This document shows, one piece after another, positions 22,707 to 24,931 of a stretch of DNA of 64,000 nucleotides. This DNA comes from a virus. The translations under genes were made by a program, and so were the position numbers. Location: the IMG/VR virus record IMGVR_UViG_3300046007_003718, positions 32,001 through 96,000 of that record. One strand, given 5' to 3'. Numbering within the stretch: the stretch's first letter is position 1; every line of letters starts with the position of its first letter. A model generated the notes under the pieces. The model did not search any database and was not told the origin of the DNA. It saw only the letters and a list, made by a program, of their open reading frames with translations.

Positions 22707-23174
22707 CTATCCGTAGATGAGCCGACCGAACACAGCAATCTGAACCAGAACATCGGCGCAGTCTGCGTCAAGATAGCCGGGGTCGTTCTCACGAAGGGCA
22801 CGCTGAATGTAGCCGGTGATGCTGGTGTTAGCAGGAGGCTCCTCCTGAACAAAGGTCTGGAAAGCCTTAGTCAGATTCTCAGCATTGACCGTATAAATAG
22901 GGGATTCGGTCTCAGCCACATCCTCATTCTCGCGGAGAGTAACCTCGTACCACAGTTCATCAAGAATGTCTCCACTCTCAGGCTTAGTTACCTTAATGTT
23001 TAGAGCGTCAGCCCAATAGAAGGAAGCGCCATAGGAACCATCAAAAGCCCCGACAAGCACAGCGTCCACCATATGCGCGGTAATAGGAAGGGTCGTCGTG
23101 ACCACACCAACCACCGTGGACTTGTCGTACTTCTCCTCTAGAGCCTTAAGACTCTCCGATACATAGTCACTCAT
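22707..23174 (-). CDS. Phage hypothetical protein
   Basis: C-terminal DADCADVLVQIAVFGRLIYG; start after GAAAGGAG. Confidence 0.65.
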   Translation of the reverse strand: MSDYVSESLKALEEKYDKSTVVGVVTTTLPITAHMVDAVLVGAFDGSYGASFYWADALNIKVTKPESGDILDELWYEVTLRENEDVAETESPIYTVNAENLTKAFQTFVQEEPPANTSITGYIQRALRENDPGYLDADCADVLVQIAVFGRLIYG

Positions 23175-23203
23175 ATTGCTCCTTTCGTTTTCCATCTGAA
23201 TAG

Positions 23204-23243
23204 ATGGTATCAGATCAACCAACCAACTGCAACTACTCGTTTA
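23204..23243 (-). promoter_or_regulatory. Early promoter, TAAACG class
   Basis: TAAACG-N5-TTGCAG-N17-TACCAT. Confidence 0.7.
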
Positions 23244-23477
23244 TACTCCACGCCAACCAGAACAGGTGCCGCATGTGCAACAGCAACTTGTGGGGGATGC
23301 AAGCCAAAGGTAAGCGATAGCCCTCTCAGCATAACGTCCTTTACTATCGGCACAATAAATACGCTGCCAAATAGAGATTGTATCATCGCAGAAGTAACGC
23401 CTATGGGGGTTATCCCATGCCCTCTTATAGATAGGCTTATTAAACCACTCATTATTAGAGCATCCACATCCACACAT
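23241..23477 (-). CDS. Cys-rich small protein
   Basis: AAAGGAGG RBS; CGCGC and CCCTCGTC ends. Confidence 0.5.
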   Translation of the reverse strand: MCGCGCSNNEWFNKPIYKRAWDNPHRRYFCDDTISIWQRIYCADSKGRYAERAIAYLWLASPTSCCCTCGTCSGWRGV

Positions 23478-23502
23478 AAAAGCCTCCTTTAATGATTTAT
23501 AC

Positions 23503-23596
23503 TACCCCTAGCGGGAGTCGAACCCGCGATAAACTTCCGCGTAAGCCAAGCGTCCTTGTGCGTTACCGGCGTCGTTGCCGCTAGACCATTAGGGGC
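23503..23596 (-). ncRNA. tRNA-like RNA with a long non-canonical anticodon arm
   Basis: Acceptor stem GCCCCUA/UAGGGGU, D-arm GUC-UAGCGGCAAC-GAC, T-arm GCGGG-UUCGACU-CCCGC; central arm ends in CAAG-GACG-CUUG; no encoded CCA. Confidence 0.75.
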
Positions 23597-23602
23597 ATGA
23601 GT

Positions 23603-23630
23603 ATTATAGACGGTTCCACAATCAAGTCAA
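23603..23630 (-). promoter_or_regulatory. Consensus-like promoter for the tRNA-like RNA
   Basis: TTGACT-N16-TATAAT ending 6 nt before the acceptor stem. Confidence 0.7.
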
Positions 23631-23639
23631 AGGTAGGCT

Positions 23640-23846
23640 TGACGTAACAATGCCCGCTCCCTGCTCACCCGTCACCGACAACCGATTCCTTTAGTTTACT
23701 TATTATTAGTATAAATGGCTCTCGCGCCTAACGTCCCATATTGGTTGTTAGGATTTCCCGACCTACCAATCGGTTTCTTACGGAGATTCCTCCACCCCAC
23801 TAGGTCAAGAGTGGTAGCCCTCGCCTAGTAGGTCGTGAGAACCGCT
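23640..23846 (-). ncRNA. Putative structured RNA downstream of the hammerhead
   Basis: Non-coding; helices CGACCUAC/GUAGGUCG, ACUAGG/CCUAGU, GGAG/CUCC, CCUAAC/GUUAGG, AACCGAUU/AAUCGGUU. Confidence 0.5.
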
Positions 23847-23889
23847 GACGCCTCTCGGCGTTTCGTCCTATCAGGACTCGTCAGAGCGG
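23842..23889 (-). ncRNA. Hammerhead ribozyme (type I)
   Basis: CCGCU-CUGACGA-GUCCU-GAU-AGGAC-GAAA-CGCC-GAGA-GGCG-UC-AGCGG: complete core, three stems, GUC cleavage triplet. Confidence 0.92.
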
Positions 23890-24041
23890 CTAGTTGCCAT
23901 TACCTTCTTATGAACCTGCATAACCCAACCATCCTCAAAGTCGTGAGCATCACACGCCTCGCCAAGACTTTCGTAGGGGCCATAAGCCATGTACCCCGTA
24001 GAGAGATTACCGACAAGAAATACAAAAGTGTAGTCACCCAT
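23871..24041 (-). CDS. Small hypothetical protein whose 3' end overlaps the hammerhead
   Basis: MGDYTFVF after AAAGGAG; TTGCAT-N17-TATGCT promoter at ~24072-24100. Confidence 0.6.
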   Translation of the reverse strand: MGDYTFVFLVGNLSTGYMAYGPYESLGEACDAHDFEDGWVMQVHKKVMATSRSDES

Positions 24042-24403
24042 GAATCTATCTCCTTTCTCGCTTGCCCAACAAGCATACAGCACTCAATCTAGAAATGCAA
24101 GCCTTAGTCGGACTCTGAATAAACGTAACTGACCTCTCCCGAAAGATGATCTGAATGGCGATCATCAAAGAAACGATTGTCGTAAGTACCCCAGACTTCC
24201 TCTCCGGGGACATTAGACGCTGCTGCTTTAGACGCATCAAGGATAGAGTTAGCCAAACTCATAGCCTCGTCTGGATAGAGAGATAGGATAAACCCGAAAG
24301 TGCTATCTCCCGAATCAATCACAACTTGGTCCTCCACAACTGAAACATAGAACTTACTCATACTCACTCCAAAGTCTGCTTGCCACACACCTGTAGATTA
24401 GCA

Positions 24404-24436
24404 GCCCCCTATCCCCGTGTCAAGGGATAGGGGGCA
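24404..24436 (-). terminator. Hairpin overlapping a TTGACA promoter
   Basis: gccccctatccc/gggatagggggc; TTGACA in the loop, TAATCT 17 nt downstream. Confidence 0.6.
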
Positions 24437-24442
24437 ACCGAT

Positions 24443-24931
24443 CTAAATGGCCGCGCCGAAGAACTCGGGCTGCTCCTCTGGGGTGTCCACGGCCTGCTGC
24501 TCAAAGGCGGGAGTCGGAGTAGAGAACTGCATGAGCGAGTAGTCGCCGCTCAGGACAAGAGCGACCTTAGTGAGAATGCTCCTCAGAGCCTTATTCTCCT
24601 CCTCCACAGCCTCTAGACGCTGAATAAACTGAATGGAAACGGCCTCGTCGTCCATGCGCTCGTTGAGCATACCCTCAACGACATACTCCACACGGGAGTC
24701 GAAGTCGTCAATGTCGTCGGAATCGAAGGTGCGATAGCGAAGGGCCTCCTCAACTCCGTCAGAGAAGTCAAGGTTGTTGTCAATGTAGTCCTGCACGCGA
24801 CCATCAATGTCAGACTCATCCACGACAGTCTCAGCGATATCGCGGATAAACGACTCGCTGTTATAGACAGCCTCGGTGGCCTTCTCGTCCACCAGAGTCT
24901 CAATGTCTGCGGGCCAATCCTCAAAACTCAT
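24443..24931 (-). CDS. Highly acidic protein with coiled coil
   Basis: Asp/Glu-rich; own promoter (TTGACT...TATGCT ~24964-24991). Confidence 0.65.
   Translation of the reverse strand: MSFEDWPADIETLVDEKATEAVYNSESFIRDIAETVVDESDIDGRVQDYIDNNLDFSDGVEEALRYRTFDSDDIDDFDSRVEYVVEGMLNERMDDEAVSIQFIQRLEAVEEENKALRSILTKVALVLSGDYSLMQFSTPTPAFEQQAVDTPEEQPEFFGAAI

Follow-up and report, generated by a model that had tools for sequence, protein, structure and literature searches.

A conserved structured RNA between a hammerhead ribozyme and a tRNA look-alike in an uncultured lake phage

In vertebrate MALAT1-mascRNA and NEAT1-menRNA, as in the t-elements of plant mitochondria, tRNA-processing enzymes make the 3' end of the upstream RNA. 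Phages carry highly structured RNAs near their tRNA genes, GOLLD and ROOL, which are 580-800 nt long, have Rfam models and are of unknown function; we know of no hammerhead that makes their ends. Hammerhead ribozymes of phages have been known since 2011 and, to our knowledge, are without a clear job. One proposal is that they divide the long transcripts of phages into smaller pieces (Perreault et al. 2011, PMC3088659). HDV-like theta ribozymes lie beside phage tRNAs; these are reported to be real suppressor tRNAs, and the ribozymes to serve tRNA maturation (Kienbeck et al. 2024, PMC10879173).

The locus described here was found in a window of 64,000 nt, which is part of a 110-kb IMG/VR virus record with 43% G+C and an estimated completeness of about 70% (G000). 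On the minus strand, a hammerhead is followed by about 250 non-coding bases and then by a tRNA look-alike without an anticodon. The features, in the direction of transcription, are as follows.

23871-24041, minus strand: small upstream ORF of 56 aa, with its last codons and stop inside the hammerhead
23841-23890, minus strand: type I hammerhead ribozyme (RF00163), with a predicted cut between 23847 and 23846, after GUC
23597-23846, minus strand: structured ncRNA as a whole, about 250 nt, without an Rfam family and kept in relatives
23837-23843, minus strand: 5' strand of the closing helix P0 (RNA positions 4-10), overlapping the 3' strand of hammerhead stem I
23753-23836, minus strand: ultraconserved 84-nt core, holding hairpins 23832-23796, 23794-23781 and 23773-23758
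23727-23752, minus strand: covarying hairpin (6-bp stem, internal loop, 3-bp stem, variable triloop)
23717-23723, minus strand: 3' strand of P0 (RNA positions 124-130), pairing with 23843-23837
23697-23716, minus strand: variable, A/U-rich linker joining the 5' and 3' domains
23669-23696, minus strand: invariant 28-nt 3' block, apparently single-stranded, including the 3' partner of a possible pseudoknot pairing
23621-23668, minus strand: variable 3' hairpin, whose 3' strand carries a -35-like TTGACT
23603-23620, minus strand: invariant 18-nt block, containing UGGAACC and ending in TATAAT
23502-23597, minus strand: tRNA look-alike of 96 nt (ARAGORN 'tRNA-Cys aca'), bounding the RNA on its 3' side

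This layout shares elements with each of the described systems. As in MALAT1-mascRNA and the t-elements, a tRNA-shaped element lies directly 3' of the RNA, and a cut by RNase P is predicted; unlike MALAT1-mascRNA, the present case is bacterial and viral, its 5' end would be made by a ribozyme without a promoter, and there is no triple-helix end protection. Like GOLLD and ROOL it is a structured phage RNA adjoining a tRNA-type gene, but their Rfam models did not match here and the length is about 250 nt instead of 580-800 nt. The hammerhead resembles those of type I in phages and prophages in its catalytic core, its three-stem layout and its place inside a long phage transcript (PMC3088659). 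The units in that study are genes or short gene blocks, whereas here the unit is a conserved ncRNA, and the released 5' end would reuse a strand of stem I in a new closing helix. Theta ribozymes, too, are reported as small self-cleaving ribozymes coupled to a tRNA-type gene in phages (PMC10879173); they belong to another ribozyme class, and in the present locus the ribozyme is separated from an anticodon-less mimic by about 250 nt of conserved RNA. The combination of a hammerhead, a conserved ncRNA and a tRNA look-alike was not found in the literature searched. In this locus the hammerhead is tied to a defined, strongly conserved ncRNA product, and the unit is closed by a tRNA mimic. We lean slightly towards reading it as a self-maturing ncRNA cassette within a polycistronic transcript that this uncultured lake phage makes early, from the minus strand.

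The hammerhead matched RF00163 over the full model (positions 1-45) with 29 bits and an E-value of 6e-5 in an 801-nt local search. The Rfam gathering cut-off for this family is 34 bits, and the copy is not listed in a run at the gathering threshold; it falls below the cut-off because its stem III loop is longer. The core letters (CUGANGA, GAAA and the NUH cleavage triplet) are complete, and stems I, II and III are present with stem I open. The core does not change among four distinct variants of the locus, and three of the pairs in stems I and III show compensatory changes. The 110-kb record has no other hammerhead-like site, and a scan of IMG/VR with the exact hammerhead pattern returned none. 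We take the hammerhead to be functional on these sequence features, and it would then cleave itself. By hammerhead chemistry, the predicted cut after GUC at 23847 would leave a 5'-OH at 23846.

Relatives were found by a portal search of phage records, and three records (G001, G002 and G003) carry the cassette. G002 and G003 are identical at the cassette, and a metagenome contig, L058, provides the fourth distinct sequence. Comparisons rest on these four sequences (the window, L058, G001 and G002/G003), three of which differ very little in the core; most of the helices are constant among them, and formal covariation depends on one hairpin. The window and G001 are syntenic; in G002 the early genes around the cassette are rearranged, with the cassette retained as a unit. 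Within the core (23836-23753), 3 of 84 sites vary among the window, L058 and G001, and identity between the window and G001 is 95%. In an 80-nt sliding comparison of these two over 5 kb, 23840-23761 was the maximum, at 95% identity; the flanking genes are mostly 50-75% identical, and the best coding stretches reach about 85-90%.

The cassette also appears to be modular. G002/G003 retain the hammerhead, the tRNA look-alike and the 3' blocks, with a different 5' domain in between. This domain showed no similarity to the window type in blastn or in covariance-model searches, even when filters were off. The G002 domain folds better in the sense than in the antisense direction, and its closing helix likewise uses the post-cleavage 5' end. 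The covariance model of the window-type 5' domain matched no other hammerhead-tRNA locus, again also with filters off. A blastn search of 50,697 phage records gave no match. A 21-mer from the core was found in IMG/VR in G001 only and in none of the GTDB genomes; a pattern for the 3' block found the three known relatives plus GC-rich coding false matches in IMG/VR and nothing in GTDB genomes, and a tRNA-mimic pattern found the same three relatives in IMG/VR. With the patterns tried, there were no further copies in IMG/VR, JGI metagenomes or one genome per prokaryote species. A generic hammerhead-to-T-loop pattern returned 17 loci, none of them homologous to the middle RNA.

The 5' 132 nt (RNA positions 1-132) have a minimum free energy (MFE) fold with z = -5.2. 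In this fold P0 closes four hairpins (23832-23796, 23794-23781, 23773-23758 and 23752-23727). Over the three-sequence alignment, 99% of cells are paired, compared with 24-54% when the partners are slid; P0 has three one-sided changes, all of which keep the pair, and 100% of its cells are paired. In the hairpin stem 23752-23747/23731-23726, three compensatory pairs separate the window and L058 from G001: hairpin 23752-23727 has CCUAAC/GUUAGG in the window and CUCAUC/GAUGAG in G001. The long hairpin (about 23832-23796) shows two one-sided, wobble-compatible changes with pairing kept. P0 and hammerhead stem I share nucleotides and therefore cannot coexist, which suggests that stem I gives its strand to P0 after cleavage. 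The MFE fold of the whole 250 nt contains another closing helix, joining the 5' and 3' ends; this helix does not hold in G001 or G002.

The first-pass annotation had drawn the fold differently, with a helix of 23835-23828 and 23766-23759 enclosing two hairpins, further hairpins after it, and an 8-bp pairing of 23775-23768 with 23687-23680 as a pseudoknot or alternative fold. The pairings that it named are present in the sequence, and both long-range ones are perfect over 8 bp. Its hairpins stand, given the covariation and the pair-keeping changes, but neither long-range helix shows covariation. The enclosing helix is perfect in the window and L058, where it surrounds the hairpins at about 23832-23796 and 23794-23781; it shows no covariation, G001 has a G-A mismatch in it, and the fold to which it belongs is 8-9 kcal/mol less stable than the alternative. 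P0 is better supported than this helix. The pseudoknot pairing, also perfect in the window and L058, loses two pairs in G001 and has no 5' partner in G002. Two perfect 8-mers together occur in about 9% of shuffles, so the pair is weakly above chance, and both pairings could possibly be alternative or tertiary contacts. Inspection by eye gave a third pairing candidate, between the hairpin loop 23817-23812 and 23768-23763.

The fold of the whole 252 nt has z = -3.0 against dinucleotide shuffles, and none of 200 shuffles equalled it. The fold energy is -84 kcal/mol for the sense strand and -64 kcal/mol for the antisense strand, and sense is better by 17-24 kcal/mol in all four variants. G-U pairs in the helices become A-C mismatches when read on the opposite strand. 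A search of Rfam 15 with 23846-23597 gave no match at the gathering score over the whole window or at E-values up to 10 in the local 800 nt, and the relatives' cassettes likewise gave no family for the RNA; the first reading had assigned none either, and in this respect it was borne out. Its proposal of a new structured ncRNA at 23640-23846 agrees with the conservation, the covariation, the strand-specific folding and the lack of a conserved reading frame, but the boundary needs correction, since the RNA runs on to about 23597. Our data indicate that this RNA is real, selected, structured and of an uncatalogued family.

Other types of gene product were considered for the same stretch. A possible start codon in the 3' block would give peptides of 14, 19, 27 and more than 50 residues in the four variants, with unrelated tails. 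The linker stretch is non-coding because contigs from RNA libraries carry indels of 1, 2 and 3 nt there, which are not all multiples of three. A protein-coding gene was rejected on these differences in ORF length and sequence and on the linker indels. A one- or two-piece tmRNA was also rejected; there is no conserved tag frame, ARAGORN predicts no tmRNA, and the 1-3-nt indels fall in the A/U-rich stretch. Complementary 10- to 13-mers, as would be expected of antisense targets in the phage genome, are no commoner than in shuffles.

Contigs from RNA libraries cover part of the RNA. Four runs were compared over 23400-24100, namely two seawater metatranscriptomes, one salt-marsh metatranscriptome and one wastewater cDNA library, the last flagged as probably DNA (its contig is X22). 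Each run gave exactly one contig of 156-167 nt, 95-99% alike and without loose ends, and these align to the window as follows.

23615-23777: first RNA-library contig
23615-23758: second RNA-library contig
23669-23833: third RNA-library contig
23676-23835: fourth RNA-library contig; together the four span 23835 to 23615

All are wholly inside the RNA; none lies on the hammerhead, the ORFs or the look-alike, and this is not evidence of absence there. The linker is spanned by two of the contigs, which places the 5' and 3' domains on one molecule. The two that cover the 84-nt core have no differences from the window, and elsewhere differences are confined to the linker, the triloop, 23747 and 23720, where the contigs agree with L058 at 23720. 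X22 has a C to U change at 23747 that leaves a wobble pair, and its other changes in this hairpin fall in the triloop. Contig depth is 3-5, and contigs cannot show ends, strand or transcription; as evidence for an abundant, bounded RNA they are moderate. The two seawater contigs stop at 23615, 18 nt short of the predicted RNase P site. Near-identical copies are present in the seawater and salt-marsh metatranscriptomes (X19, X20 and X23), and DNA copies were found only in lake samples.

On the 3' side, the linker looks like an insertion hotspot; G001 has about 75 additional nt there, and L058 has small indels. The G001 insertion (L025:1410-1500) has its own hairpin and two additional TAAAC-type motifs. 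The 3' block (23696-23669) is the same in the window, L058 and G002 and has two changes and a 3-nt insertion in G001. The 3' hairpin folds as a hairpin in each variant, although its length and sequence vary and its thermodynamic support is modest. A basal paired extension, involving both strands, is common to the window and G002 and missing in L058 and G001; between the former two it shows one G-C to U-A swap, read by eye, and TTGACT is its 3' strand. The 18-nt block is the same in all four variants.

The tRNA look-alike is present in all relatives and is the sole tRNA-like gene of the record, in which no true tRNA gene was found. Its identity to G001 is 85-89%. All variants score below the cut-off of the Rfam tRNA model, and only the T arm matches Rfam, through the tmRNA model. 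The look-alike has an acceptor stem and a T arm, with a long closed hairpin, covarying between variants, in the place of the anticodon arm. It encodes no CCA, and the discriminator base differs among the four variants (A, G, U and U).

From this layout we infer cleavage in vivo, a strand swap, a cut by RNase P and a trans-acting role. The type I hammerhead would fold first and cut itself, which would free the upstream mRNA with a 2',3'-cyclic phosphate and leave the downstream RNA with its 5'-OH. The 3' strand of stem I released in this way (23843-23837) may then pair with 23723-23717 and close a compact 5' domain of about 130 nt, and this closure would hide the 5' end in a helix and make the cut irreversible. 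The tRNA look-alike, starting at 23596/23597, would recruit host RNase P, which would produce the 3' end of the RNA of about 250 nt. The product would be a stable RNA consisting of the 84-nt core, the covarying hairpin and the 3' domain with its two invariant blocks; most likely it would bind, in trans, a conserved macromolecule of the host at an early stage of infection. Our best guess is a stable phage RNA that matures itself and acts in trans; the unrelated 5' domain of G002/G003 fits poorly with a single conserved host target. A wider proposal is tentative, and we regard it as doubtful: that the cassette is a general phage device for promoter-less and terminator-less RNAs with exchangeable payloads, and that the 84-nt core, under near-absolute constraint and expressed beyond lakes, is a new class of host-factor decoy or catalyst.

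The 3' domain also allows the roles to be reversed. TTGACT and TATAAT, 16 nt apart (23630-23603), lie inside the RNA and score 11 of 12 as a sigma-70 promoter in the window and G002; this is the only strong promoter-like site in 23000-24500, and in these two variants the tRNA look-alike may start from it. The product could then be the look-alike itself, with the 250 nt as a structured 5' leader that combines a processing or folding scaffold with a promoter region, and with the 5' domain as exchangeable filler. The parts that are invariant in all variants are indeed the 3' block, the 18-nt block and the look-alike, and G002 and G003 have an entirely different 5' domain in its place. However, two of the four variants, L058 and G001, are without a -35, and the TATAAT of G001 is 3 nt nearer the look-alike. 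Therefore, the invariant 3' blocks are unlikely to be kept merely as a sigma-70 promoter, and the look-alike of G001 and L058, with no -35, must be transcribed from upstream and then cut out. In addition, the window-type 5' core is more conserved than the look-alike or any nearby gene, filler would not keep 95-97% identity, and the RNA-library contigs are on the 5' core and not on the look-alike. We consider it unlikely that the look-alike is the product.

A leader of about 250 nt with several stems and an ultraconserved core is also what would be expected of a cis-regulatory RNA, such as a riboswitch, an attenuator or a T-box-like tRNA sensor, controlling the look-alike or the downstream genes. 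Alternative pairings exist, in that 23835-23828/23766-23759 competes with the MFE fold and an AACCG segment has two exclusive partners, and the invariant heptamer UGGAACC is equal to the bulge of the T-box antiterminator. This heptamer, however, follows its hairpin on the 3' side, opposite to the arrangement in a T-box, and shows no covariation with the discriminator base of the look-alike. The Rfam T-box model (RF00230) and all riboswitch models were unmatched at E-values up to 10, and there is neither a terminator nor a sequestered ribosome-binding site. The hammerhead, moreover, parts the RNA from the upstream message. Control in cis is thus improbable in our judgement.

The invariant blocks with their -10 and -35 could also mark an element that acts as DNA, whether a promoter-operator cluster, an origin or a protein-binding array, with no functional RNA. 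Several results argue against this. Only on the minus strand is wobble pairing preserved by the changes in the helices, the two strands differ by about 20 kcal/mol in all variants, and hairpin 23752-23727 has compensatory changes in its stem between fixed flanks. The sequence is contained in RNA libraries, and a conserved ribozyme lies directly upstream. A purely DNA-level role is very improbable. Chance folding in a non-functional spacer between the hammerhead and a degenerate tRNA gene, to which the weak excess of the two long-range helices and the z near 0 of the 3' domain alone would lend themselves, is already disfavoured and barely credible in view of conservation above that of the coding flanks, the covariation, the 5' domain z of -5.2 and the retention of the cassette in a rearranged context.

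The self-maturing cassette thus remains the reading that we favour. If it is confirmed, phages would be able to excise stable RNAs from within an operon with a single ribozyme and a single enzyme of the host. Confirmation would also establish a new RNA family, with an 84-nt core kept almost letter for letter, and a modular layout in which two unrelated 5' domains occupy the same frame and the binding of the payload is directly testable. At about 400 nt, the cassette is small enough for tests in vitro, in a laboratory actinobacterium or in E. coli.

The host is probably an actinobacterium, judging from the portal protein of the phage, which is 40-42% identical to those of Cluster C mycobacteriophages and the Gordonia phage Skog. 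All Logan runs in which the phage DNA was found are lake-water metagenomes. The genes surrounding the cassette are all on the minus strand; ORFs adjoin it on both sides, and a ribosome-binding site and the next ORF follow directly 3' of the tRNA look-alike. The stretch 23000-24500 contains no terminator-like site, and no promoter separates the cassette from the upstream ORF. None of the genes flanking the cassette has a known family, and no gene for a partner, target or enzyme was recognised nearby; Ro/TROVE and RtcB genes are absent from the 70%-complete record. The 56-aa upstream ORF matched no Pfam or PHROG family, a homolog search with it returned only itself, and the flanking small proteins gave no match as queries. 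Its final four codons (SDES) and stop coincide with the hammerhead core and stem II in the window and G002 (23871-23890). The homologous small ORF of L058 ends upstream of the ribozyme, and the stop of the G001 homolog is not at the window's place.

Hammerheads of other phages have different neighbours. At L003:585-740 (the same in L005) and L014:5217-5400, a phage hammerhead is followed by about 130-150 nt of unassigned RNA without similarity to the RNA of the window; in L003 a tRNA array lies 3' of this RNA, and in L014 ARAGORN finds no tRNA. In two unrelated IMG/VR phages, the hammerhead adjoins a tRNA-Tyr (L012:1981-2115 and L016:3824-3946, both minus strand). The hammerhead end and the tRNA-Tyr start are 2072 and 2071 in L012 and 3907 and 3906 in L016. 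The predicted cut is at the first base of the tRNA, and self-cleavage would therefore make the mature 5' end without RNase P.
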